Of a stretch of 20,000 nucleotides of DNA, positions 2,532 through 20,000 are shown piece by piece; position 1 is the first letter of the stretch; each line of letters opens with the position of its first letter. The DNA lies in contig NC_057749.1 of assembly GCF_004010195.1 (NCBI RefSeq), positions 17,694,002 to 17,714,001 of the forward strand, written 5' to 3'. A model generated the notes under the pieces. It was not told the origin of the DNA. It saw only the letters and a list, made by a program, of their open reading frames with translations, and ran no database searches. The position numbers and the translations under genes were made by a program. This DNA comes from Chiloscyllium plagiosum (taxonomy: Eukaryota).

Positions 2532-3384
2532 TAGAGTCATACAGCATGGAAATAGACCTTTCAATCCAACTCATTCATGCCGACCAGATTTCCCAAACTG
2601 AACTAATCCCATTTGCCATAGAAGGGCATATCCCTCTAAAACTGTTTCTATCCATGTGCCTGCCCAAAAGTCTTTTAAATGTTGTAACTTACCTGCACCT
2701 ACGGCTTCTTCTGACAGTTCATTCCACATATAACCACTCTCTGTGTGAACAAGTTGCCTCTCAGTTCCCTTTTAAATCTTTCCCCTCTCACCTTAAATCT
2801 ATGCCCTCTAGTCTTGAACTCCCCTACCCTAGGCAAAAGACCTTGACTATTTACCCTATGCATGTCCCTCCTGATTTTATAAACCTTTCAACCTCCTATG
2901 CTCCGGGGAAAAAGTTGCAGCCAATCCAGCTTCTCCTTATAAATCAAACCCTCCAGTCTCGGCAATATCCTTGGAAATCTTTTTTACACCCTTTCCAGTT
3001 TAATAATATCCTTCCAAAATTCCTGTATGCAGTACTCCAAATGTGGCCTCACCGATGTCCTGTACAGCTGCAAGTTGATGTCCAAAACACAGGGCTCTGA
3101 CTGATGAAGGCAAGCATGCCCAATGCATTCTTCACCATCCTGTCTATCTGTGACACAACATGCTAGGAACTATGTACGTGCATCCCAAGGTCACTTTTTG
3201 CAACAACACTCCTCAGTGCCCTACCATTACCTTGTAAGCCCTATCCTGGTTTGTCTTACCCAAATGCAACACCTCTCATTTATTCAAATTAAACTCCATC
3301 TGCTGTCCCTCTGCCCATTGGTCCAGCTGATTAAAATCCTGTTATACTCTTAGATAAGCTTTTGCATTGTCCACAATACTATCA
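2532..3384 (-). mobile_element. Degenerate CR1 LINE 3' fragment
   Basis: Begins TAGAGTCATACAGCATGGAAATAGACC (reverse-complemented tail, similar to 1-60) and parallels the 1-455 copy. No intact minus-strand ORF. Confidence 0.85.
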
Positions 3385-4943: not shown

Positions 4944-5239
4944 TGCCACGGTGGCTCATTGGTTAGCACTGCTGCCTCACAGTGCCAGGGACTCAGGTTC
5001 AATTTCACCCTTGAGTGACTGTCTGTGTGGAGTTTGCACATTCTCCCTGTGTCTGCATGGGTTTCCTCTGAATGCTACAGTTTCCTCCCACAGTCCAAAG
5101 ATGTGCGGTTAGGTGGATTGACCATGGGAAATGTGGGGTTACAGGAATAGGGTGGGGGTAGGTAGGATGCTCTTTGGAGGGCCAGTGTGGATATAATGGG
5201 CCAAATGGCCTGCTTCCACACTGTAGAGGTTCTATGATT
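4944..5239 (+). mobile_element. HE1-type SINE (V-SINE superfamily; tRNA head, CR1-derived tail)
   Basis: A box TGGCTCATTGG, B box GGTTCAATTTC, core TGTGTGGAGTTTGCACATTCTCCC, CR1-like tail CCACACTGTAG...TTCTATGATT. Similar to 14167-14490. Confidence 0.92.
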
Positions 5240-5569
5240 TACAATGGGACCTGCCTATGTAAACATGTCACATGGACAGGACCACATTAAGCAGATAAAT
5301 TAGTCTTTACTGAATGTGGCTATAGGATCAAAGCCTGGGTATATCTATGATCTCTGTGTGCAGCAGAATCTAGGTATTAATATCTAATAAATAGGGATAC
5401 GGTGATGTCTAAGCCTGAATGACTTTGGCATTTCCTCAATCAGTCTGTAAATAACCCAAACTCATGGTGTGGCAACAACACTCACAGTGAAAGAGGAACG
5501 AGCTTTGACTAATCCAAGAAAACAGTGGCACAATGCAGAAAAAAATTTCACTGCATCGATCAATATGAT

Positions 5570-5800
5570 ACAACAACAACTTGCATTTGTAAGTCGCCTT
5601 TGATCAGGTGAAACATTCGCAGCGATTTGTATACCAAGCTAGGGAAGGCACCATTAGGAGGGAGGACCAAACATCTCTTTGGGAGCAGATTTAAGGAGGA
5701 CCTGGAAGAGAAAGGGGAGTGTTGTCAAAGGTTTCAGGGAGGGAAGTTCAACACTCACTGAGACCAATAATGGGGTGAAAGGGTGGCAGACTGCAGTCAG
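5570..5800 (-). mobile_element. Decayed L2 LINE 3' end
   Basis: ACAACAACAACTTGCATTTGTAAGTCGCCTTT is the reverse complement of an L2-type tail (AAAGGCG..ATAAATGCAAGTTGTTGTTG); compare 14608-14636. Confidence 0.65.
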
Positions 5801-5898
5801 AGATTACTGGAGTGGACGTTAAAGTTTTATTGGTAAATGATTTAAAGTTTATGCAGGATAAAATTACGCTGATAGTTACATTTCTAAAACGTTTCCAG

Positions 5899-5992
5899 GC
5901 TTAAAACACCACGAGCCCGAGACATGCTTGATGCTGGAGTGATTGTTGCTCTTGGTAGTGACTTTAATCCCAATGCATACTGTTGCTCGATG
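5899..5992 (+). CDS. AMDHD1: Internal coding exon of imidazolonepropionase (amidohydrolase domain-containing 1, HutI family), probably equivalent to human exon 7
   Basis: Acceptor TTTCCAG|G at 5898/5899 and donor ATG|GTAAGT at 5992/5993; 94 bp, phase 2 to phase 0. Translates (R)LKTPRARDMLDAGVIVALGSDFNPNAYCCSM, matching my recollection of human AMDHD1 RLKQPRARKMLDEGVIVALGSDFNPNAYCFSM, including the HutI SDFNP motif. Confidence 0.95.
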
Positions 5993-6133
5993 GTAAGTAA
6001 ATCCATTCTGTCATTGTTTCATCCAGTGCCTCTGGAAGAAAAGGAACGATGTATTTGGTGGAGAGGACAGTTGAGCTCATTGCTTTGATCTGGAGCCTTC
6101 GAAATGAAAGGTCCCTTGTTTATCCAGCATTTT

Positions 6134-6613
6134 TTTTACAACATTGGGGAAGTATTTGTGTACTTTTACAACATTGGGGAAGTATTTGTGTACTTTTACA
6201 ACATTGGGGAAGTATTTGTGTACTTTTACAACATTGGGGAAGTATTTGTGTACTTTTACAACATTGGGGAAGTATTTGTGTACTTTTACAACATTGGGGA
6301 AGTATTTGTGTACTTTTACAACATTGGGGAAGTATTTGTGTACTTTTACAACATTGGGGAAGTATTTGTGTACTTTTACAACATTGGGGAAGTATTTGTG
6401 TACTTTTACAACATTGGGGAAGTATTTGTGTACTTTTACAACATTGGGGAAGTATTTGTGTACTTTTACAACATTGGGGAAGTATTTGTGTACTTTTACA
6501 ACATTGGGGAAGTATTTGTGTACTTTTACAACATTGGGGAAGTATTTGTGTACTTTTACAACATTGGGGAAGTATTTGTGTACTTTTACAACTTTGGGGA
6601 AGTATTTGTGAAC
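6134..6613. repeat. 30-bp minisatellite (TTTTACAACATTGGGGAAGTATTTGTGTAC), 16 units
   Basis: 15 identical units (6134-6583) plus a final unit with 2 substitutions (6584-6613). No spacers. Confidence 0.98.
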
Positions 6614-6965
6614 TTTTGAAGTGTACCCAAATGCCAAACAGACACTTTTCACAAGCAAAAAGCTTTCTGAAAATGCAAGTTGTTACAAACAACTCCCATG
6701 TGAAGTTCTCCAAGTTAGAATATTTTCAGACAGAAATATTCCAAATCGTTAAGTTCCAGGGTGAGGAGGAATGGACTGAGTCCCACTGCTCCCTCAGTTT
6801 GTGACAGTAAGGTTCGTTTTAAAAGGATTCCTCTGTTGTGAACGCCTTTTACCCAGACCAAATTATGTTTCAAAAAGAGCCAAATTAGCTGGGCTTTACT
6901 TGAATTAACAAAAATGTGAGTTTATTAGTTTCTACATGTGGGAAGTATTAATAATATATTGGGAA

Positions 6966-7158
6966 TATGATGTGGAGGTGCCGGTGTTGGACTGAGGTGG
7001 ACTAAGTCAGAAGCCACACAACACTGGGTTATAGTCCAACAGGTTTAATTAAAATCACAAGCTTTCACAACAATGCCCTTTAATCAGGTGGAACTTCACC
7101 TGACGAAGGAGCAGCGCTCCAAAACCTTGGACTATAACCTGGTTTCGTGTAACTCCTG
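6966..7158. mobile_element. Short palindromic Penelope-derived non-autonomous element with decayed hammerhead cores
   Basis: 10-bp TSD ATATTGGGAA at 6956-6965 and 7159-7168. Inverted arms GGTTATAGTCCAA / TTGGACTATAACC around a TCAGGTG-GAACTT-CACCTGA centre. CTGACGA-A-GGAGC-AGC-GCTCC-AAAA at 7100-7124. Confidence 0.8.
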
Positions 7159-7464
7159 ATATTGGGAAGAAAAAGTGGGTCCAAAGAAAAGGTAAAATTT
7201 AAAGGTTATAAGCAGATAATCTCTCTGGATAGTTCAGGAAAAGTAGACAGTGGAACATGGATAGCGGAACAGTTAAACAGCCATTTTTGGGATTTTAGTT
7301 TTTGCAGGTTAGTTGATATCCTTTTGACCTGTTTCCTTTCGATGGTAACTGGTTAGCAGCACTTCAGAGCAAGAGAGCCCTTCTGTCTTTTGTTTCATTC
7401 TGACTGGCTTCTCACTTAATTGGCTTCTAGCATGTAGAGTGACAGATTCATAGATCAAAACATT

Positions 7465-7773
7465 TGAGATCCAGACAGTACAGCAGAGGTTCTTCAGCCC
7501 ATCAAGTCTGTGTGCCACCAAAATGACACTAAATCTACCCTCATCCCACTTTACAGCACTTGGCCAATGCCTTGAATGTTATAGCATTTCAGGTGCTCCT
7601 CCGTGTAATTTTTAAAAGTTGTTAGGTTTCCCACCTCAACTACTCTCCCAAACAGTGCATTCCAGATTCACATCACCCTCTGGATGAAAAAATAGTTTCC
7701 TCAAATCCTCTCTAAACCTTCACTTTAAAATTATATCCCCTTGTTATTGACCCCTGAACTAAGGGGAAGAGCT
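7465..7773 (-). mobile_element. Decayed CR1 3' fragment
   Basis: TTCAGCCCATCAAGTCTG...CAGTGCATTCCAGATT...CACCCTCTGGATGAAAAAA resembles the reverse complement of the CR1 ORF2 end (FFxQRVxNxWNAL). Confidence 0.75.
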
Positions 7774-7775
7774 GC

Positions 7776-7866
7776 GTGTATGTGTGTGAGAGTGTGTATG
7801 TGTGTGTATGTGTGTGTGAGAGTGTGTATGTGTGTGAGTGTGTATGAGAGTGTGTATATGTGTGTG
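7776..7866. repeat. Compound (TG)n microsatellite with TA/AG interruptions
   Basis: GTGTATGTGTGTGAGAGTGTGTATG... read directly from the sequence. Confidence 0.95.
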
Positions 7867-8595
7867 GTTATTTGGGGTATAGAAGGTGGCCAGCAATAAC
7901 TGGACTGTCCTACACTAACAGCTGGTATGGAGGCTTATAAAAGGAAGCCAGGAGAAAGCATTGTGAAAGAAAATTAAAAATAGTGATGGAATGAAGAAAT
8001 TCTTACTTCTATATTAGTGAGAAATTGAGCAGGAAAGAACAGCTCTTGGACTGCATTCAAGACATCCCTCATTTATTCCATTATGATTATATTTTTATTC
8101 AAGTGTAGATGAAATAACAGAGACTGTGAAGCAGCATAGCAAACAGTCCAAATACAAACAACTCCATAATATAATAAAAAGTATTCTATTAAATTCAGAG
8201 AACTCTTTTATAACTGTAATATATAAGAAAGAAATAGCAACAGTGCATTATAGACTCTAATATTCTTTTGCAAAGTAGACTATATTGATTGGAGACTGTT
8301 CTCAGCATTACTGTACATGCCTAACGTTATTAGCAATGATTGATTTCAAAGAAATTGTATGATACCAAAGAAAATCTGAATTTTAAAACAAGTCAGGAAT
8401 CTAGAAATTAGTCTGCAGAATTCTCTGGAATATAAGTTCATGCGGCATTTGGCCCAAAACAGCCCCTAACCCACTTTGAGATTGAACCCTGACCTTCAGT
8501 TTTGTCAGAGGCCGGAAGCTTTTTGTCCCATTCACCATCTGAAGAATTGAATATCAGACTGCTTTCCTCACCTGCATGAAGGCATATTGTGTATA

Positions 8596-8854
8596 TTTTT
8601 AAGGTGAGAGGCGAAAGATTTAAACACGACATGAGTCACAATGTGGTTCGTGTGTGGAATGAACTGCCAGACGATGTGGGTACAGTTACTCCATTTAAAA
8701 GACATTTTGATAAGTACATGAATAAGAAATATTTGGATGGATATGGGCCAAGCGCAGGTAGGTTGGACTAATGTACTCTGGCATTATGGTTGGCATGGAC
8801 GGGTTGGGGCCAAAGGGTCTGTTTCCGTGCTGCATTCTATGATTCTGTGACTCT
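8596..8854 (+). mobile_element. CR1 3' fragment
   Basis: ORF 8589..8771 reads FKVRGERFK...VVRVWNELP...FKRHFDKYM. The 3' UTR ends TTCTATGATTCTGTGACTCT. Confidence 0.88.
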
Positions 8855-8919
8855 CTGGGTATAATGGTGGTGGGGGATATTGAGTTGCCACATTTTTACA
8901 TTGATCACCTTCAAAGATA

Positions 8920-9183
8920 CTCAGGGGAAGTGAGGACTGCAGATGCTGGAGATCAGAGCTGAAAATGTGCTGCTGGAAAAGCGCAGCAGGTCAGGCAGCA
9001 TCCAAGGAACAGGAGAATCGACGTTTCGGGCATGAGCCCTTCTTCAGGAATGAGGAGGGTGTGCCAAGCAGGCTAAGATAAAAGGTAGGGAGGAGGGACT
9101 TGGGGGAGGGGCGTTGGGAATGGCGGAAGATGAGGCGCTCTTCCTCCAGCCGTCGTGTTGCTATGGTCTGGCGATGGAGGAGT
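8920..9183 (-). mobile_element. Penelope-derived terminal fragment with an intact hammerhead core on the minus strand
   Basis: 12-bp TSD CCTTCAAAGATA at 8908-8919 and 9184-9195. Terminus AAGTGAGGACTGCAG(A/G)TGCTGGAGATCAGAG shared with the 11018 and 17890 elements. Confidence 0.82.
9020..9047 (-). ncRNA. Minimal hammerhead ribozyme core motif (predicted)
   Basis: Minus strand reads CUGAAGA-A-GGGC-UCAU-GCCC-GAAA-CG-UC: catalytic core, 4-bp stem II, palindromic ACGU in place of stem III, GUC cleavage triplet. Stem I is weak. Confidence 0.7.
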
Positions 9184-9345
9184 CCTTCAAAGATAACTTA
9201 TTGAAGTGGTTCAGGAGATCCTGCAGTCATTAAGAGTGCTCTGTAAGATCCAGGCTCATTCTTCAACCTGGTCCTGATGGAGGTCACCTTGTGAATCACC
9301 ATTTTGGATTAAGAACCTCTCTTTCTGTTAGGGTCATGTTGGTTT

Positions 9346-9668
9346 TCTTTTGGATGGATGTTGAACTGGGACATTGCCTACGCTCTCAGGTGGCGATTAA
9401 AGAGCCCACAGCCAGTGTTAGAAAAGGTCAGGCGATTTCTTCCTGATGCCTCGGTCAATTTTTATCCCTCAAGCAACATTGTAGGAAACAAATTAACTGG
9501 TCATTATCCCATTGCTCTTTATGGGATCTTGCTGTGTGCAAACTGACTGCTACTTTCCTGTATTGAAACGGTGATTTCATTGTAAAACCGCAACACTGGT
9601 TGTAGAGAGCTGCAGTATATCCTGGAGCCTTGAAAGATGCTATAGAAATAAAAGGTTTGTCTTTCTTT
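9346..9668 (+). mobile_element. Decayed Deu-domain SINE (SacSINE1/AmnSINE1-like) lacking its head
   Basis: CTCTCAGGTGG, TTTATCCCTCAA, CTGGTCATTATC.CATTGCT and GGGATCTTGCTGTGTGCAAA match recalled DeuSINE blocks. L2-like tail GAAAGATGCTATAGAAAT...TCTTTCTTT. Confidence 0.78.
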
Positions 9669-10205
9669 ACGGGGTCCTATTAAAAAATCAAATAAAATTT
9701 CTGCAGATGAGGCAGCAAAACTATATTTACAGAGGAGCAGGGATCACTCAGTGATCAGCATCAAGCCCTCCCTCTCTTTCTTGTAGTGACTGGTCTCTAT
9801 CAGCAGCTACTGACCCAGTTCGGGGCCACCAATGGGGACAGTATGGAACTGGCTCAAGAACTTGTGAAGTTCATTAGCCGCTGACCTTGGGAACAATGAG
9901 GGAAGACCGCAGTTACACTCATTTGTGTTACAAAGGGTGGACACACAGAGCAAACACTGAGTGTCAGAGGAAAATGCTGAAGGCTAGTGTTTCTGTGCCG
10001 CAGTCCCAAGCTCATTAAAATGTGCCTTAATAGGGAACAAGAATATGATGAAAATTGTGCATTTAATTTTGGATCTTCACACAGGTCAGTTCAGAAGTTA
10101 GTTTTATGTCATATTATTTCAGTCATTTCTCTTCCTGTCATCCTCATCCCCAGATTGACATGATGATCAGGGATCTCCTCTCGGACCCTGTGATCTGAAG
10201 TTTTT

Positions 10206-10371
10206 CATCACAGAACCCCTACAGTGAGGGAGCAGTCTATAAGTCCACACTGACCCTGCAAAGAGCATCCAACCCAATCACTGTAACCCCCCATTTCCTG
10301 TGGCTAATCCACCTAACCTGCACACCTTTGGACTGTGGGAAGGAAACCCATGCAGACACAGGGAAAATGTG
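10206..10371 (-). mobile_element. HE1-type SINE, headless fragment
   Basis: CCACCTAACCTGCACACCTTTGGACTGTGGGA...GGAAACCCATGCAGACACAGGGA is the reverse complement of the core at 5044-5120. Confidence 0.85.
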
Positions 10372-10732
10372 GCTGAAGGGTGTGGGACAGGGTGGGGTTT
10401 AATGTTTTGAACACTCCATCTAATGTCCTCTTGACAGAACATTGTAGGATCTCACTAGCAATCCACTCATCCAATAGTGCTTCAGTGGGAATTCCAGTTG
10501 TACAGGATGAGATAGAATCTATAACACAGAATAGGGCATTCGGCACATTACTTTGTGCTGATGTTTACACTCCTCCTCCCCCCCCAATCTCTCAATCGGC
10601 CTATACCTTTCTTCTTTCGTCACAATACATCAAGGTGTTTACCTGACCAGTCCCCGTGGGAACAACGTGCACACTATCGCTACTCTTCTGCTGAAGACAA
10701 TTTAGTTTAATTTCCAGCTGGCATTATTAGTG

Positions 10733-10868
10733 TTCTGAGGAAAGGTCACTCAACCTAAAACATTAACTCTGATTTTTTACGCTGCTGATGCCAGACCTGC
10801 TGAGCTTGTCCAGCAATTTCTGTTTTTGTCTCTGATGTACAGCATCCGCAGTTCTTTCGGTTTTTATT
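10733..10868 (+). mobile_element. Penelope-derived terminal fragment (distinct subfamily) with a decayed hammerhead core
   Basis: 14-bp TSD TGGCATTATTAGTG at 10719-10732 and 10869-10882. CTGAGGA-A-AGGT-CACTCA-ACCT-AAAA-CA-TT at 10735-10764. Tail CCAGACCTGCTGAG...CAGCATCCGCAGT resembles the reverse complement of the 8920 element's end. Confidence 0.78.
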
Positions 10869-11079
10869 TGGCATTATTAGTGACTGTCTTATCTTGAAGT
10901 CCTCAGTTTTACCTCCCCTCTGAGTTGGAAACTTCTTTTGCCATTTTACACAATTAAAATCCTTTGATAATTTTAGCAATCTCTTCTTGGGTTTCCTCCA
11001 GTCTACTCTTTTCCCTCGAGGAGAAAGTGAGGACTGCAGGTGCTGGAGATCAGAGCTGCAAATGTGTTGCTGGAAAAGC

Positions 11080-12043
11080 NNNNNNNNNNNNNNNNNNNNN
11101 NNNNNNNNNNNNNNNNNNNNNNNNNNNNNNNNNNNNNNNNNNNNNNNNNNNNNNNNNNNNNNNNNNNNNNNNNNNNNNNNNNNNNNNNNNNNNNNNNNNN
11201 NNNNNNNNNNNNNNNNNNNNNNNNNNNNNNNNNNNNNNNNNNNNNNNNNNNNNNNNNNNNNNNNNNNNNNNNNNNNNNNNNNNNNNNNNNNNNNNNNNNN
11301 NNNNNNNNNNNNNNNNNNNNNNNNNNNNNNNNNNNNNNNNNNNNNNNNNNNNNNNNNNNNNNNNNNNNNNNNNNNNNNNNNNNNNNNNNNNNNNNNNNNN
11401 NNNNNNNNNNNNNNNNNNNNNNNNNNNNNNNNNNNNNNNNNNNNNNNNNNNNNNNNNNNNNNNNNNNNNNNNNNNNNNNNNNNNNNNNNNNNNNNNNNNN
11501 NNNNNNNNNNNNNNNNNNNNNNNNNNNNNNNNNNNNNNNNNNNNNNNNNNNNNNNNNNNNNNNNNNNNNNNNNNNNNNNNNNNNNNNNNNNNNNNNNNNN
11601 NNNNNNNNNNNNNNNNNNNNNNNNNNNNNNNNNNNNNNNNNNNNNNNNNNNNNNNNNNNNNNNNNNNNNNNNNNNNNNNNNNNNNNNNNNNNNNNNNNNN
11701 NNNNNNNNNNNNNNNNNNNNNNNNNNNNNNNNNNNNNNNNNNNNNNNNNNNNNNNNNNNNNNNNNNNNNNNNNNNNNNNNNNNNNNNNNNNNNNNNNNNN
11801 NNNNNNNNNNNNNNNNNNNNNNNNNNNNNNNNNNNNNNNNNNNNNNNNNNNNNNNNNNNNNNNNNNNNNNNNNNNNNNNNNNNNNNNNNNNNNNNNNNNN
11901 NNNNNNNNNNNNNNNNNNNNNNNNNNNNNNNNNNNNNNNNNNNNNNNNNNNNNNNNNNNNNNNNNNNNNNNNNNNNNNNNNNNNNNNNNNNNNNNNNNNN
12001 NNNNNNNNNNNNNNNNNNNNNNNNNNNNNNNNNNNNNNNNNNN
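11080..12043. other. Assembly gap (964 N)
   Basis: Run of N characters. All long ORFs crossing it are artefacts. Confidence 1.
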
Positions 12044-12168
12044 CACCCCCACTCCGGCCTATCACCCTCACCTTGACCTCCTTCCACCTATTGCATTTCC
12101 TACGCCCCTCCCCCAAGTCCCTCCTCCCTACCTTTTATCTTAGCCTGCTGGACACACTTTACTCATTC

Positions 12169-12196
12169 CTGAAGAAGGGCTCATGCCCGAAACGTC
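12169..12196 (+). ncRNA. Minimal hammerhead ribozyme core motif (predicted), sense to AMDHD1
   Basis: CTGAAGA (12169-75), A, GGGC TCAT GCCC (12177-88), GAAA (12189-92), CG TC. Predicted cleavage after 12196. Identical to the minus-strand core at 9020-9047. Confidence 0.7.
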
Positions 12197-12763
12197 GATT
12201 CTCCTGCTCTTTTCCCTCCCCCACCTTCATCTTGCCCAGATGATGAGGCTCTCATTAATGCTCACACCCATGTATTACCTAAACGATGGCTTCTGTACCA
12301 CAGTGGCAAATTAAGGTGATTTTGAATGTGACTGCTCCTTCCTGAATCTGTCCCTGAGGTTCAGGTATTGCAATTGGTTCAATATCAAAAAATTGCAGTT
12401 CAATGTCAAAAGCCCCAGATAGACCAGATCACAGAGATGGATTCTCTTCGATAGTGTGAAAGAGACATTCCACTCACTAACACCTGCAGAGAGGGAGTGA
12501 GGTGAGGCACATTATGTACAGAATTGTGATGCCTGGGACTGAGTTATTTGGTTCTAATGTACACTTGGGAATTAGACAGCATCATAAAGCTCACAAGCAG
12601 AACCTTGAATTGATCACGGTAACTTCTGAAGGCTGAGATTAAGTGAACCTTCCACATATTGTGCCTTCCACAATGTTTCTATAAGATACCTGTATTAACT
12701 CCTCAATCAAAGCTTTTGACAGTTACAGGCAGAACTGAGTTCCCTCAAGGAGACACTTCGCCC

Positions 12764-12850
12764 CCTTAAAATGGGCAGATTTGAGTTGGAGATGTGAAAC
12801 TTGCTCCTTAAAATGGGCAGATTTGAGTTGGAGATGTGAAACTTGCTCCT
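12764..12850. repeat. Perfect 42-bp tandem duplication
   Basis: CCTTAAAATGGGCAGATTTGAGTTGGAGATGTGAAACTTGCT at 12764-12805 and 12806-12847, followed by CCT. Confidence 0.95.
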
Positions 12851-13061
12851 CAAACCCACTGTAGTTAATCTGGGAGCTCCCTTGTGTGAAGTTTGGGACA
12901 TGTCATCGTGTTTTAATGGCTGTAGGACCCTGGTGTCTGATACACAGCAGGATTAGAGAAACACAGAGGGGAACGCTACTCAACCAGACCTTGGTCATCA
13001 ACTGTCAGCCAAACATTATTGAGAATTTTTGTGTCTGCCTTTCATCCTGTGATTGTTCAGG

Positions 13062-13815
13062 ATATAAGAACTAGGAGGAGGCCATTCAGCCCCTCGAGAC
13101 TCCTCTGCCATTTGATAGCGTCATGGCTGACCTCAACCCCACCTTCCCGCCCACTCTCCAGAGCTCTGCAGCACATTACTCATTAAATACCTGTCTATCG
13201 CCTCCTTACATTTACTCAGTGTCCCACATCTATCTCAATCTGGGGAGGGTGAATTCCCCAGACTCACAACCCTTAAGAGAAACAATTTCTTCTCATTTCC
13301 ATTTTAAATCATAGAATCCCTATCGTGTGGAAGTAGGTCATTCAGCCCATACTGAAGAGCATCCCACCCAATCCCCATAATCCTGTATTTCCCTTGGCTA
13401 ATCTACCTAACCTGCACATATTTAGACAGTGGGAGGGAACTCACGCAGACAGTCACCTGAGGCTGGAATCAAACCTGGGTCCCTGGTGCTGTGAGGCAGC
13501 AGTGCTAACCACTGAGCCACCCTCTGCGACCCCTTATCCTATAACAATGACCTCTCATTCTCGACTATAACACATGAAGAAACATTCTTTCAACATCTAC
13601 TTTGTCAATTCCCTTTATCATCTTATTGACCTCAATTAGATCTCCTCTCATTCATCTGTACCCTAGAGAGTATAGGCCTAAACTGCTCAATCTCTCTTCA
13701 TAAGGCAAACTCTTCATCTCTAGATTCAATCTAGTGAACATCTTTGAACTGTCTCCAATACAACTACATCCCTCCTGAAGTGAAGGGACCAAAATGTGCA
13801 TTGACCATTCTCCTG
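13062..13815 (-). mobile_element. Old CR1 3' fragment split by an HE1 SINE
   Basis: ATAAGAACTAGGAG..GGCCATTCAGCCCCTCGAG is a reverse CR1 tail. It resumes after 13522; minus ORF 13726..13908 ends FWSLHFRRDVVVLETVQR (compare FWSPNLRRDILAIEGMQR in the 16363 ORF). Confidence 0.82.
13310..13522 (-). mobile_element. HE1-type SINE, internally deleted
   Basis: GTGAGGCAGCAGTGCTAACCACTGAGCCACC is the reverse complement of the tRNA head at 14172-14202. Tail ATAGAATCCCTA at the left end. Confidence 0.9.
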
Positions 13816-14059
13816 GATGAAGCACATTATGGTTGGAAGTCGCCGGTTACTAGAATGTGTGCCATGTTGAGTTATGGTAAAGAATATGGTGAACAGTTTT
13901 GATTCCACTTTGTGTATCTTCCAGATCTCTAGCAGGACCCCATCAGTCAGCTGCCTGAATCTTTCTTCATAGCTCAGTCGCTCTGACCCTGGGAATTAAC
14001 CTGCCTGCCTGTATTACTCTGGGCTTGATTCTCGTGTTTCAGTGACCAGAATAGTACAG

Positions 14060-14636
14060 ATCTTAATCACTCCACTGTAGATAGTCATGTCTTCAGCTGC
14101 CTGGACTCTAAGCAATGGTGTTGCCCTCCAAACATTTTCAACTCACTATTTCTCTATTGATGTTCTGGCACGGTGGCTCAGTGGTTAGCACTGCTGCCTC
14201 ACAGCGCCAGGGAACTGGGTTCAATTCCCACCTCAGGCAACTGTCTGTGTGGAGTTTGCACATTCTCCCCGCGTCTGCATGGGTTTTCTCCGGGTGCTCC
14301 GGTTTCCTCCCACAGTCCAAAGATGTGCAGGTCATGTGAGTTGGCCATGGGAAATTGCCCGTAGTGTTAGGTGCATTAGTCAGGGATAAATATAGGGGAA
14401 TGGGTCTGGCTGAGTTACTCTTTGGAGGTTCGGTATGGATTTGTTAGGCTGAAGGGCCTGTTTCCACACTGTAGGGAATCTAATCTAATCAAAACAGACT
14501 GTTTGATAATTCACTTGATGAGCTGGCTGGAATCTCCTTTATTGGCTCAGTGTACAATTATGGTCTGATGAAGCTATCGCAAACTGCTCAGAAAGGTTTA
14601 CTTTGTTAAAGGTGCTGCAAATGCAAATTATTGTTG
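14060..14636 (+). mobile_element. Old L2 3' end (14060-14166 + 14491-14636) split by an HE1 SINE
   Basis: TCTTCAGCTGCCTGGACTCTAAGC before the SINE and ATCTCCTTTATTGGCTCAGTGT...GTTAAAGGTGCTGCAAATGCAAATTATTGTTG after it resemble a recalled L2 3' end. Confidence 0.65.
14167..14490 (+). mobile_element. Full-length HE1-type SINE
   Basis: Pol III A box TGGCTCAGTGG (14174-14184), B box GGTTCAATTCC (14218-14228), V-SINE core with CpGs retained, tail CCACACTGTAGGG(AATCT)n. Confidence 0.95.
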
Positions 14637-15194
14637 AAGGTGGACACAGTGCTAAGGAGCTGCAACATAATAACGTCCAGTATATATTTGATGATTTGGT
14701 CATTTCTGCATGTCATTTGATTTGGGTTATTGATTGCTGCTCAGGCTAGCATTGAGACTAAAATCATCTCCAGACCTTTCCATTTATTACTGAATACCCA
14801 GAAGAGAAGATGATTTAAATGGACACAAGGCTTTGGTTCATTCCTGTCAGAAACTGTATACAGTCACTCTATTATGGAGTCTCTATAAATGATCTAATCT
14901 ACTATCCAAGGGTCTCTGCATGTTTTGCTCTCTCTCTTCTCTCCCCCATCAAGGTAAATGGTGCATTTCACCCAGCTTTCTAATGTCCCCCAGCTCAGCC
15001 GAGTCAGATTGCTCAGGTAGCCTTCTCAGGTTCACTGAGTGACGGAAGCAGTCAGACTCGAAGGTGGAGGTAACACTGGGAGCTCAGCGATGGACATGGA
15101 GCCGAAAGAGAATCACTTTGCCAGTAGGTCAGAGCTCCCCCACCCATTGAAGGTTAAAATTCTTCCCACTGGACCAGAGTGACTGTCAAGTTTA

Positions 15195-15359
15195 ACTTTT
15201 AACATTGTTTCTTATTTCTTTCCATCTTGTTCTGAAGATTTTGCACCAGGGAACTTGTACCTAATATGGCACGGCATGGTAACATTGGGAACTTCTCACT
15301 GTCCTCCTGTGTTTTTGTATTTGAGTGCACGTGACAAGAAAGTCTAAATCTAAATCTAA
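15195..15359 (+). mobile_element. Probable non-LTR retroelement 3' tail (Rex1/L2-like)
   Basis: TCACTGT...GAGTGCACGTGACAAGAAA followed by a (TCTAAA)n tail. Family assignment is tentative. Confidence 0.5.
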
Positions 15360-15501
15360 GATGCATCTTGTTCCCACACTGGCTGGCAGGTAGGGAACAT
15401 GAAACAACTTACACAGAGCAGAAGGAACGTAGGAACGGGTGAAAGCCATTCGGCTCCTAGAGTCTGTTCTGTCACTCATTTTAAACCCATCTAGTTACTG
15501 T

Positions 15502-16124
15502 TGTCACAAAACTGGTTCCTTTTTTTCTAAACGCTGTTCCTTTTCTCAAAGATATTATGTCCTTGGTTTTTTTCCCGCTCCTGGTGCTGATCAGTGTGGT
15601 TTGGTACAGAGATTATAGGGTATTGAGAGGCCTTTTTGTTTATATGTAAACAGATGAGCCTTCAGGCCAAAGTGGTCATGTTTTAGAAATGACCTGTATA
15701 ATGAAAGGGGAATGGTCAGCTCTCTAGCTGAGCAGTTCAGTTCAGAACTAGCTGGGAGCTATGTGGAAACAATCTCTCTCTCTCTCTCTCTCTGCCCTTC
15801 TAATTTCAACCTGTAAGCATCTGTTCCATTCCTTTATATTGTTTTTCAAAAGGGTTAGCTTAGTGGGACTGTTGTGTATATTCGGAACAGCATAATTAAG
15901 TCTAGTTTGGATAGACTGAGTTCTGTAGGGATTCTTTATTCTGGTCTTTGTGTTTCATTGTATAATTTTGTGAATAAATTTCTGTCTGTTTTAAAACCTA
16001 GTAATCAACCGAGCTAGCTTATTCTGGGCAATTCTCACTGTACATTTACCAAAACGAATTGCAAAAGTATGGTCTTTGTTGCCTGCCCAGGAATGTTTTG
16101 AGTGGTCTGGCCTAGTCCATAACA
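15502..16124 (+). mobile_element. Solo LTR (623 bp), Gypsy- or ERV-type
   Basis: TGTCA...TAACA termini, 4-bp TSD CTGT at 15498-15501 and 16125-16128, internal (CT)n at ~15773-15793, AATAAA at 15973. Orientation is inferred from the poly(A) signal. Confidence 0.8.
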
Positions 16125-16139
16125 CTGTAGCCCGCTAAC

Positions 16140-17862
16140 CATGTTGGTGGTGTGTTGGTAATGTCGCTGGGTTAGTGATCCAGACCCACAGTCTAACGTT
16201 CTGGGGACATGGCTTTCAATCCCATCGAGGTAGATGGTGGAATTTGAATTTAATGAAGATCTGGAATAGACAATAGACAATAGACAATAGGTGCAGAAGT
16301 AGGCCATTCTGCCCTTCGAGCCTGCACCACCATTCATTATGATCATGGCTGATCATCCTTATTCAGTATCCTCTTCCTGCCTTATCTCCATAACCCTTGA
16401 TTCCACTATCCGTGAGAGCTCTATCCAACTCTTTCTCAAATAAATCCAGGGACTGGGCCTCCACTGCCCTCTGGGGCAGAGCATTCCACACAGCCACCAC
16501 TCTCTGGGTGAAGAAGTTTCTCCTGAGTTCTGTCCTAAATGGCCTACCCCGTATTTTTAAGCTGTGTCCTCTGATTCGGGACTCACCCATTAGCGGAAAC
16601 ATGTTTCCTGCTGGCAGAGAGTCCAATCCTTTCATAATCTTATACGTCTCAATCAGATCCCCTCTCAGTCTTCTAAACTCAAGGGTACACAAGCCCAGTC
16701 GCTCCAGTCTTTCAGCGTAAGGTAGTCCCGCCATTCCAGGAATTGACCTCGTGAAACTACGCTGCATTCCCTCAATAGCCAGAATGTCTCTCCTCAAATT
16801 TGGAGACCAGAACTGCACACAGTACTCCAGGTGTGGTCTCACCAGGGCCCTGTACAGCTGCAGAAGAACCTCTTTGCTTCTATACTCAATCCCTCTTGTT
16901 ATGAAGGCCAGCATGCTATTAGCCTTCTTCACTACCTGCTGTACCTGCATGCTTACCTTCATTGAGTGGTGTACAAGAACCCCCAGATCTCTCTGTACTG
17001 CCCCTTTACCTAAATTGATTCCACTTAGGTGGTAATCTGCCTTCCTGTTCTTGCCACCAAAGTGGATAAGGATCCATTTATCCACGTGAAAGTGCATCTG
17101 CCATGCATCTGAGCACTCACCTAACTTGTCCAGGTCACCCTGTAATCTCCTAACATCCTCATCACATTTCACCCTGCCACCCAGCTGATGAAATTTGCGA
17201 ATGTTATTGCGAATACCATCTTGTATATCCTGAAGATAGATCGTAAAAAGCTGCGGCCCCAGTACTGATCCGTGCGGTACCCCACTGGTCAGTGCCCGGC
17301 ATTCCGAAATGGAGGGGGGGAGGAGTGTGGAAGGATGAGAGAATGCAGGCTGCGGCCCTATGAAGCAGGGGGAGGGCTTGCAGTTCGCCTGTGTGGGGAT
17401 GTGGGTACTTCCCAATGGCTCCTTCACTTCGAGGTCTCTGACCAATTCTGGTTCGTTGCACAATACCAGATCCAGAATTGCCTTCTCTCTGGTCGGCTCC
17501 AGCATCAGCTGCTCTAAGAATCCATCTCTGAGGCACTCCACAAAGTCTCTTTCTTGAGGTCCAATACCATCCTGATTCTCCCAGTCTACCTGCATGTTAA
17601 AATTCTATTGTCTATTAATGAAGATCTGGAATAGCTGACTGACCCCATGGCAACCTATAACCACAGCTGATTGTCATTAAAACCCATCTGGGTCACAAAT
17701 GTCCTTTAGGGAAGGAAACTGCCATCCTTACCTGGTCTGGCCTACATGCGACTCCAGACCCACCGCAGTGTGGTTGACTTTTAACTGCCCTCTGGGCAAT
17801 TAGGGATAGGTAATAAATTCTGGCCTGGCCAGTGACACCCACATCCTGTGAATGAACATAAT
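16140..17862 (+). mobile_element. tRNA-derived SINE (16140-16269 + 17615-17862) split by a CR1 insertion
   Basis: Head TGGTGTGTTGGTAATGTC...GCTTTCAATCCC. The body resumes after a 20-bp duplication and ends CCCACATCCTGTGAATGAA. Homologous to 3955-4270. Confidence 0.85.
16270..17603 (-). mobile_element. Young CR1 LINE, 5'-truncated, with an apparent large internal deletion
   Basis: ORF 16363..17595 joins the endonuclease C-terminus (FLEQLMLEPTREKAILDLVLCNE) to RT/C-terminal sequence (TSGVPHGSVLGP, LYRALVRPHLEYCVQFWSP, FFTQRVV). (CTATTGT)n tail on the minus strand. 20-bp TSD TTAATGAAGATCTGGAATAG at 16250-16269 and 17615-17634. Confidence 0.95.
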
Positions 17863-17889
17863 AAATTCTATTGTCTGGCCATAAGCTAT

Positions 17890-18096
17890 CATTAGGAGAA
17901 AGTGAGGACTGCAGATGCTGGAGATCAGAGTTGAGAGCATGGTGCTGGAAAAGCGCAGCAGGTCAGGCAGCATCCGGGGAGCAGGAGAATCGATGTTTTG
18001 GGCATAAGCTTTTCATCAGGAATGGTGAATGTCTTATGCCTGAAACATCGACTCTCCTGCTCCTCAGATATTGCTTTTCCAGCACCACGCTCTCGA
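17890..18096. mobile_element. Short palindromic Penelope-derived element with decayed hammerhead cores
   Basis: TSD CCATAA(G/T)CTAT at 17879-17889 and 18097-18107 (1 mismatch). Inverted arms TGGTGCTGGAAAAGC / GCTTTTCCAGCACCA and GAGCAGGAGA.TCGATGTTT / AAACATCGA.TCTCCTGCTC. Confidence 0.85.
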
Positions 18097-18339
18097 CCAT
18101 AATCTATTGTTCCCAGATTTAAAACAATTAATGGATCCCCAGCAGATGCCACTCCACACTTTGTGTATGAGAGGTCCTCACTCTGATGTCAAGGTGATTA
18201 CTCCTCATCCTGGAGACTCTCTCTGTCTCCCTGTCTCCTCCATAAGGGACATTCCGCTGTATGCTGGAGGAAGGGAAGGAGAAGTACATCAAACAATCAA
18301 GTACTGTGTTGCAAAACGAGGCCTGGAGTTGGAAGGAGA

Positions 18340-19099: not shown

Positions 19100-19503
19100 T
19101 ACAGCACAGGGTTAGATACAGAGTAACGCTCTTTCTACGCTGTCCCAATCAAACCCACCCAGGATAGGGACTGGGTTGGATATAGAGTAAAGCTCCCTCT
19201 ATACTGAGGCCCATCAAACACTCCCAGGACAGGGAGACATGGGTTTGGATACAGAGTAAAGCTCCCTGTACATGATCCCCCATCAAACACTGCCAAGACA
19301 GGACAGCACAGGGTTAGATACAGAGTAAAAGTCCCACTACACTGTCCCCATCAAACACTCCCAGGGCAGGGACAGCACGGGGTCAGATACAGTGTAAAGC
19401 TCCCTCTACTCCATCCCCTTCAAAACATCCCAGGACAGGGACAGTACAAGGTTAGATACAGAGTAAAGCTCCCTCTACTATGTCCCCATCAAACCCTCCT
19501 GGG
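19100..19503. repeat. Diverged tandem array of a ~63-70 bp unit, about 6 copies
   Basis: Unit approximately GGGTTAGATACAGAGTAAAGCTCCCTCTACACTGTCCCCATCAAACACTCCCAGGACAGGGACAGCAC. The GATACAGAGTAAA-like core recurs near 19115, 19179, 19248, 19317, 19386 and 19455. Confidence 0.92.
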
Positions 19504-19507
19504 GTTT

Positions 19508-20000
19508 ATTAGTCTGACCTCAGTGGTGGGAAAGATGCTGGAGTCTATTATAAAGGATGAAATTACTGCACATCTGGATAGTAGTAACAGGATAGGACAG
19601 AGTCAGCATGGAGTTATGAAGGGGAAATCATGCTTGACTAATCTTCTTGAATTTTTTGAGGATGTAACTCTGAAGTTGGACGAGGGAAATCCAGTAGATG
19701 TAGTGTACCTGGACTTTCAGAAAGCTTTTGATAAAGTCCCACACAGGAGGTTAGTGAGTAAAATTAGGGCACATGGTATTGGGGGCAAAGTACTAGTTTG
19801 GATTGAAAATTGGTTGGCTAATAGGAAACAAAGGAAATAAACGGCTCCATTTCGGAATGGCAGACAGTGACCAGTGGGGTACCGCAGGGATCCATGTGGG
19901 ACCGCAGCTTTTTACAATATATGTTAATGATATAGAAGATAGTATCAGCAATAACATTAGCAAATTTGCCGATGATACAAAACTGGGTGGCAGGGTGAAA
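19508..20000 (+). mobile_element. CR1 LINE ORF2 reverse-transcriptase region, 5'-truncated and frameshifted, running off the window end
   Basis: ORF 19523..19840 reads SQHGVMKGKSCLTNLLEFFEDVT...VDVVYLDFQKAFDKVPHRRL. After a small deletion near 19833 come TSGVPQGS and KFADDTKLGG. Confidence 0.95.

Follow-up and report, generated by a model that had tools for sequence, protein, structure and literature searches.

Minimal hammerhead motifs in probable end-pieces of Penelope-like retrotransposons in the shark Chiloscyllium plagiosum

What are the hammerhead-like cores that recur in one short stretch of the genome of Chiloscyllium plagiosum, and does their self-cleavage make the ends of the RNAs from which the surrounding insertions were copied? 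A first-pass annotation of this stretch (20,000 nucleotides of contig NC_057749.1, positions 17,694,002 to 17,714,001; hereafter the window) described five small insertions of three families, and proposed that they are very abundant non-autonomous elements whose transcript ends are defined by self-cleavage. We conclude, with a probability of roughly 0.85, that the motifs lie in 3′-terminal (pseudo-LTR, pLTR) pieces of endonuclease-bearing Penelope-like retrotransposons (PLEs) of three families, each with the metazoan minimal hammerhead. The five motifs are of a known kind, in mostly dead end-pieces.

Motifs and their insertions

All five motifs were found where the annotation had placed them, each in an insertion with a target duplication of 11–14 bp (Table 1), and each place has a hammerhead core with one A added; helix II is paired in four of them and broken in that at 17996–18019. 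The three families were confirmed, with family A at 9047, 12169 and 18019, family B at 10735 and family C at 7100. The description of the insertions as small fails for that at 11018–12206, which spans 1.19 kb including a run of N. The count of five holds for the motifs listed; two further decayed cores, at 7063–7087 on the reverse strand and at about 18027–18050 on the forward strand, had been missed, and are the partner arms of head-to-head pairs. L042, a candidate second insertion, was rejected as a duplicate of the window region.

Table 1. Hammerhead-bearing insertions in the window and their parts (window coordinates).
Feature	Position	Strand	Details
Family C insertion, head-to-head pLTR stubs	6968..7158		Left arm with tail
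Target duplication of the above	6956-6967 / 7159-7170		12 bp, 1 mismatch
Family C core of left arm, decayed	7063..7087	-	G8 and helix II broken
Family C core	7100..7124	+	G12→A at 7121; internal deletion of the cut site and of the 3′ strand of helix I
Family A insertion, internal deletion	8920..9183	-	Target duplication 8908-8919 / 9184-9195, 12 bp exact
Family A minimal hammerhead, intact	9020..9047 (core 9024-9047)	-	Extra A, 4-bp helix II, 4-nt palindrome; predicted cut after 9020
GIY-YIG endonuclease C-terminal coding remnant	9123..9183	-	On the ribozyme's strand
Family B insertion	10733..10868	+	136 bp; starts 2 nt before C3
Target duplication of the above	10719-10732 / 10869-10882		14 bp exact
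Family B core	10735..10764 (core 10735-10760)	+	G12→A at 10757; palindrome broken
Family A insertion, inverted ends	11018..12206		Left arm 11018-11079 (-) with tail; N at 11080-12043
Target duplication of the above	11006-11017 / 12207-12218		12 bp exact
Family A minimal hammerhead, intact	12169..12196 (core 12169-12192)	+	Predicted cut after 12196; ≥125 nt of 3′ untranslated element sequence before it
Family A head-to-head pair	17890..18096		Right arm begins inside core near 18027
Target duplication of the above	17879-17889 / 18097-18107		11 bp, 1 mismatch
Family A core, decayed	17992..18019 (core 17996-18019)	-	G12→A; two helix II G→A; palindrome broken

The pattern used in the annotation, which ends in (G/A)AAA, gave the places correctly but not their intactness: it masks the loss of G12 in three of the five copies, and the core is intact in two. 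In hammerhead chemistry the change of G12 to A means loss of cleavage.

It is scarcely credible that these motifs arose as chance matches within repeats. A loose core pattern did not exceed expectation (4 matches against 1.79 expected, with at least 4 in 23 of 200 shuffles), and no hammerhead covariance model of Rfam matched the window at E ≤ 10. However, a strict pattern, in which the extra A and a stem of 4 bp were required, gave 2 exact matches against none in 40 shuffles, and 4 matches when one mismatch was allowed (shuffle mean 0.175, maximum 1); further matches of the loose pattern at 14565 and 18882 were dropped, as they lack the closing stem under the strict one. Across the whole genome we counted at least 83,350 exact intact motifs (70,555 of family A, 1,729 of B and 11,066 of C), and none with the reversed controls, which bears out the description of these elements as very abundant. 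Compensatory pairs between families and accord with the published consensus also speak against chance.

At family level the boxes CUGANGA and GAAA are intact. Tabulated by position, the extra base is A in 126 of 127 motifs, and the pair G10.1-C11.1 is G-C, or G-U after CpG decay, in all of them, although for both the search patterns had demanded this spacing. (A MAFFT alignment of 16 motifs set family C one column off, and the pairs were tabulated by position instead.) In helix I, pair 2.1-1.1 is C-G in families A and C and U-A in B, while pair 2.2-1.2 is U-A in A and B and A-U in C. The palindrome pair 15.2-16.2 is C-G in 70 of 85 family A motifs and G-C in 29 of 31 of family C; in family B it is mostly decayed (C-G in 1 of 11), although many among the matches listed keep the palindrome. 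There are compensatory changes between families in helix I and the palindrome, across three families only; position 2.3-1.3 is a U-U mismatch in the main form of family A (63 of 85). As the helix II classes were imposed by the search patterns, the free test comes from helices I and III alone.

Folded as single copies the motifs form helix II at most, and no hammerhead fold, whereas in a co-fold of two 12169 motifs the palindromes pair between molecules. By their anatomy the motifs are minimal type-I hammerheads in which a palindrome replaces helix III, and they are predicted to cleave as dimers or with the help of a protein. This agrees with the Penelope-type reading of the annotation and with the consensus for the minimal hammerhead of metazoan PLEs as it appears in the accessible part of PMC4209133; that consensus already includes the extra base, so that the additional A is present here but is not a new trait. 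Helix II is 4–5 bp here, compared with 7–8 bp in Schistosoma (PMC4209133).

Ties to Penelope-like elements

For family A the expected link to Penelope reading frames was found. In one long copy (L071) a single frame encodes a reverse transcriptase (RVT_1, E 4.7e-8, above the cut-off) and a GIY-YIG endonuclease (E 2.9e-4, just under the cut-off), and ends about 160 nt before the family A motif; L005 has the same arrangement. Within the window, the endonuclease remnant at 9123–9183 has 82% nucleotide identity to the L071 frame over 62 nt. Both long copies carry a CX4CX2C cysteine motif between the reverse transcriptase and the endonuclease, and by this linker motif family A may be of the Neptune/Nematis type, in which a similar zinc-finger-like linker is described (PMC8557442), unlike the Poseidon element of Anolis carolinensis, PAc (PMC11167929). 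A solved-structure search with the L071 protein gave 0 matches. No autonomous copy showed its 5′ junction between pLTR and reading frame; the 5′ end of L071 is rearranged.

The tie of family C to endonuclease-bearing elements is suggested more weakly, by one long copy (L192) whose predicted C-terminus resembles an endonuclease in a single weak pairwise match (33% over 48 aa, E 4e-4) and by a peptide in L196 that resembles that of L192; no reverse transcriptase was present in the 8 upstream stretches examined. Family B probably belongs with the PLEs by kinship with family A (a 29-nt match, 86%) and by an upstream tract common to 5 copies; beside 30 copies we found no reading frame, reverse transcriptase or endonuclease sequence.

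These results qualify the description of the elements as non-autonomous. The copies are non-coding, but the long members of families A and C run into endonuclease-coding sequence, so that stubs of autonomous elements suffice and no separate class is needed. It is nevertheless conceivable, if rather improbable, that certain families, most of all B, consist of genuinely non-autonomous short elements made from 130-nt masters with their own promoter. The barren flanks of family B, its uniform length and clean target duplications would fit such masters, as would the position of the start, which in about 24 of 29 copies lies no more than a few bases from the core (judged by eye, in copies ranked by likeness to that in the window). 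However, five family B copies share a tract upstream of the core, two of them over 158 nt, and sequence runs on upstream in 14 of 75 copies of family A and about 11 of 20 of family C.

The insertions resemble those of endonuclease-bearing Neptune/Nematis-type PLEs (PMC8557442, PMC3846280) in their 5′ truncation, inverted pLTRs, palindromic junctions, target duplications and optional tail on one arm, 30–40 bp in those elements; they differ in that stubs here far outnumber long copies. They also share with the non-LTR retrozymes, as far as these are set out in the accessible part of Li et al. 2026 (10.64898/2026.07.22.740005), a non-coding sequence, a type-I hammerhead and an origin from PLE pLTRs. 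Those retrozymes, reported in one chondrichthyan, are head-to-tail tandem arrays, whereas each of the five insertions in the window is either solo or head-to-head.

Insertion ends and their origin

The copies begin at a preferred place, and it is not the cut site. Among 75 copies, 17 start 3–4 nt upstream of the core and 1 at the cut site; 17 of the 57 informative 5′ ends fall in one 2-nt bin (P ~7e-12 against a uniform spread). A further 16 of the 75 family A copies start inside the core. Head-to-head pairs show the same preference, with 10,873 at the upstream edge of the core compared with 612 at a place some 45 nt further downstream and 1,504 around the cut site. A related organism has this boundary too, in its contigs and RNA reads, where loose ends occur at place 1572, 4 nt before C3. 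The 3′ ends fall into two groups, 57–69 and 92–102 nt beyond the cut site; these sites are separated by about 35 nt, and the interval is the known tail.

The proposal that self-cleavage defines the ends is not supported for inserted copies, and it is very improbable that these are non-autonomous elements whose RNA ends were made by the hammerhead and copied as such. A cut RNA would lack the core, but most copies keep it; the motif stands uncut in them, they tend to start upstream of it, and their 3′ ends lie well beyond the cut. Three of 75 copies do begin within 2 nt of the cut site, but a uniform spread would already put 3.8 in such a 5-nt bin. There are also 1,504 head-to-head places with an arm near the cut site, exactly at it in some among the matches listed. 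In PAc, insertion in vitro needs no cleavage, and ribozyme mutants insert normally (PMC11167929). PAc is like the shark elements in its two 3′ end sites, which bound a tail about 100 nt past the ribozyme, in the use of uncut RNA as template, which for the shark elements is our proposal, and in that extension can proceed from either strand of the target. The accessible part of that report mentions no clustering of 5′ ends ahead of the core, and it places the start of the PAc reading frame inside the ribozyme.

The pile-up might instead come from the enzyme, through a stall of the reverse transcriptase on leaving helix I or a cut made by the endonuclease in the newly made DNA, at the ATT that immediately precedes the family A core, although we consider this unlikely. 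The anole endonuclease favours 5′-ATT-3′ (PMC11167929) and family A has ATT at -4, but families B and C begin just before the core without it. Microhomology accounts for 6 of 10 resolved junctions, and the one RNA run gave no pile-up of molecule starts or ends along the stretch and no transcription start, both as an enzymatic origin would have it. What this leaves aside is an excess of G, found before 21 of the 40 junctions in the peak (11.8 expected) but before only 8 of the 35 others (8.0 expected). This excess hints at a copied cap (P 0.002 for all junctions, 0.044 for those outside the arms), although the idea was formed on overlapping data and these P values are not independent tests; of ten non-arm G junctions, one has a clean extra G, three are target-derived and six are unresolved. 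A 3′ splice site at the upstream edge of the ribozyme, as in Drosophila Penelope, was rejected: CAG is present in family B and absent from A, so that this reading is not general.

For the insertion step we lean towards an internal start followed by run-off, which would cover stubs, head-to-head pairs and long copies alike. The target would be nicked by the element protein, and reverse transcription of an uncut RNA would start inside it, some 60 or 97 nt beyond the cut site. Where the RNA starts immediately ahead of helix I, the enzyme would run off the 5′ end after 90–130 nt and leave a stub. Head-to-head pairs could arise by snap-back or by the joining of two such cDNAs, and long copies from read-through RNAs. 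The ribozyme would most likely cut only as a dimer or with help from the element protein, and the cut would remove the first ~32 nt of the transcript, as a side reaction. Genomic copies would then decay neutrally, with G12 lost through CpG deamination; among 51 copies, 34 keep the core, 25 keep core and palindrome, and 8 carry G12→A.

We also put forward, tentatively, a more specific possibility: a capped RNA may start 4 nt ahead of the core, at a site that resembles an initiator, so that the ribozyme is transcribed first, and the stubs may be run-off (‘strong-stop-like’) cDNAs that record this 5′ end, often with the cap as an extra G. The ribozyme might then decap or silence short pLTR transcripts once their numbers suffice for dimerisation or for binding to the element protein. 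If this is true, it would be a built-in brake on parasitic stubs rather than the maker of template ends.

Significance for Penelope-like elements

This work adds three families from a large genome to the 2014 finding (PMC4209133), a modest step on its own. The copy number is some tenfold above the largest counts in the accessible part of that report (~4,000 in coelacanth and ~9,000 in Xenopus), although the methods of counting differ; sharks are not mentioned there. Among the papers listed by literature searches, none describes PLE hammerheads in sharks or a pile-up of 5′ ends; the supplements of PMC4209133 and 10.64898/2026.07.22.740005 may name sharks. The function of PLE hammerheads is stated to be unclear (PMC8557442). 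The sharp 5′ boundary, which tens of thousands of natural insertions record, allows a direct test of where PLE RNAs start and of the role of the cut.

Hammerhead motifs in the window and their Penelope-like carriers

The five hammerhead motifs proposed in the first-pass annotation were all found in the window, and they are genuine and rightly named as hammerheads of Penelope-like elements.

Hammerhead motifs in the window, by family
Feature	Position	Strand	Family	Core
Hammerhead motif	7100-7124	plus	C	sole difference G12 to A
Hammerhead motif	9024-9047	minus	A	intact
Hammerhead motif	10735-10760	plus	B	sole difference G12 to A
Hammerhead motif	12169-12192	plus	A	intact
Hammerhead motif	17996-18019	minus	A	decayed further than the G12 to A copies

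A loose core pattern is not above chance in the window (four matches vs 1.79 expected), and an Rfam search of the window returned no hammerhead. When the pattern was tightened to include the extra A together with a stem of 4 bp, two exact matches were obtained in the window vs none in 40 shuffles and, with one mismatch, four vs a shuffle mean of 0.175. The extra base and the palindrome are already published consensus features, given where PMC4209133 describes the motif; the same source reports no cleavage of monomers and low cleavage of dimers.

Each of the five motifs lies in a separate insertion with a target duplication of 11-14 bp, although the description of these insertions as small fails for one of 1.19 kb with an N interior. 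Two of the five are head-to-head pairs, whose decayed second core had been overlooked. Within the long family A insertion, 964 N occupy 11080-12043, and several related copies have similar internal N runs.

The proposed link to Penelope-like elements was borne out for family A. At L071, a locus outside the window, a single frame comprises a reverse transcriptase (Pfam, E 4.7e-8), a CX4CX2C linker and a GIY-YIG domain (E 2.9e-4, just under the Pfam cut-off), and is followed by a family A motif; a second locus, L005, is arranged similarly. By comparison with the types treated in PMC8557442, the linker at both loci points to a Neptune/Nematis type. Furthermore, the window insertion at 8920-9183 contains 62 nt of endonuclease-coding sequence. 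Long copies of family C have several hundred upstream bases in common, and one (L192) has an endonuclease-like C-terminus (weak match, E 4e-4), and no ORF was detected next to the 30 copies of family B examined. The 5' part of the L071 ORF contains four tandem 120-bp in-frame repeats (2800-3330), through which the frame stays open. In a second type of GIY-YIG element (L049:2301-3050), the 3' end includes a further hammerhead-like stretch, itself with an extra base, and related pieces occur at L066, L004 and L048.

Other repeats are also found in the window. At 6136-6606, a 30-bp unit is repeated in tandem about 16 times, almost perfectly; the stretches 5016-6167 and 6584-7775 have a >99% identical copy on another contig (L042, G000:C23), in which the array region differs in length and which may be a recent duplication or an assembly duplicate. 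At 19101-19511, about six units of 69 bp form a degenerate tandem repeat. Several further dispersed families (4944-5106, 13442-13521, 14166-14328; 1-344, 1445-1573, 2546-2886, 8593-8797) are putatively tRNA-SINE-like and LINE 3' end-like.

Abundance and decay of the three families

Exact patterns for intact motifs gave at least 70,555 matches for family A, 1,729 for B and 11,066 for C in the 3.56-Gb genome, and none when reversed. The fetched loci supplied 85 motifs of family A, 11 of B and 31 of C; in 126 of these 127 the extra base is A, and both sides of helix I and of the palindrome change between families, although helix II classes were preset by the search patterns and three families represent few independent events. 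The core is preserved in 34 of the 51 family A copies that span it, 25 of which also preserve the palindrome; eight copies carry G12 to A. The variable sites are mostly CpG (N7 and one loop position excepted), a pattern that fits neutral decay. A single locus (L029:736-799) holds a fourth hammerhead family, with U3-A8 core covariation and a perfect head-to-head palindrome; such covariation is already published for Schistosoma in PMC4209133.

Where inserted copies end

Self-cleavage had been suggested to define transcript ends, but it does not appear to set the ends of inserted copies, which tend to start just before C3 (the first core base), with a peak 3-4 nt before it and no enrichment at the cut site. 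In a first sample of 40 places, taken in list order from family A exact matches and leaving out most other subfamilies, homology was lost 0-6 nt before C3 in 29 of 43 cores (one at an N gap), at 7-42 nt in none and further away in 14. A second sample (75 copies from the first 76 of 63,094 genome-wide matches) took its anchor on the downstream side of the cut site, which would make cut products visible. Here, the start falls in the interval from 8 nt before C3 to 2 nt inside it in 30 copies (17 exactly 3-4 nt before), inside the core in 16 and no more than 3 nt from the cut site in four (one exactly there); the remainder start further downstream (4) or 12-15 nt before C3 (3), run on upstream past 36 nt (14) or abut N (4). 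The peak before C3 departs strongly from uniform (P about 7e-12), whereas the cut site in this sample does not (3 vs 3.8 expected). The same upstream start was judged by eye in families B and C.

At the 3' side, two clusters of ends lie beyond the cut site, by about 57-69 and 92-102 nt. Of head-to-head pairs spaced by no more than 30 nt, the upstream edge of the core has 10,873, a point roughly 45 nt downstream has 612 and the surroundings of the cut site have 1,504; these were counted with patterns unequal in length and subfamily reach and with some places counted twice. Inverted pseudo-LTRs, palindromic junctions and the tail between the two 3' end sites are described in parts of PMC3846280 and PMC8557442. 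In PMC11167929, reverse transcription initiates internally at two sites bounding the tail, cleavage is protein-assisted and insertion is independent of cleavage.

Loose ends at the same upstream place also occur in a related organism, in both contigs and RNA reads; their flanks are diverse, as read-through of genomic stubs (short 3'-terminal copies) would produce. In a weak test on one library made by random fragmentation (3,055 reads), molecule starts and ends did not pile up at the cut site or elsewhere. Low-depth contig joints at L007:1572-1604 lead from the cut site 33 nt back to the -4 start (4 nt upstream of C3) in two sequencing runs; these are possibly head-to-tail ribozyme dimers from template switching.

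A proposed origin of the stubs

The simplest reading, to which we give a probability of about 0.55, is that reverse transcription would initiate within the RNA and then run off the RNA 5' end immediately upstream of helix I. The A at -4 falls within a word resembling the initiator, YYANWYY, in families A and B. A post hoc test placed G in front of 21 of 40 peak junctions vs 11.8 expected (nine of 11 exactly at -4), and of eight of 35 non-peak junctions vs 8.0. An extra G is presented in PMC11702581 as a mark of cap copying in full-length L1 insertions; counting against such copying here, only one of our ten non-arm G junctions has a clean extra G, three being target-derived and six ambiguous. 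The main rival is that the 5' pile-up comes from stalling or endonuclease cutting. R2 is known to snap back after full-length cDNA (PMC11371274). If internal initiation and run-off do operate in these families, presumably of a shark, the -4 start arrangement would not be general, because in Drosophila Penelope an intron separates the ribozyme from a start that lies well upstream (PMC2377424 and PMC4209133).
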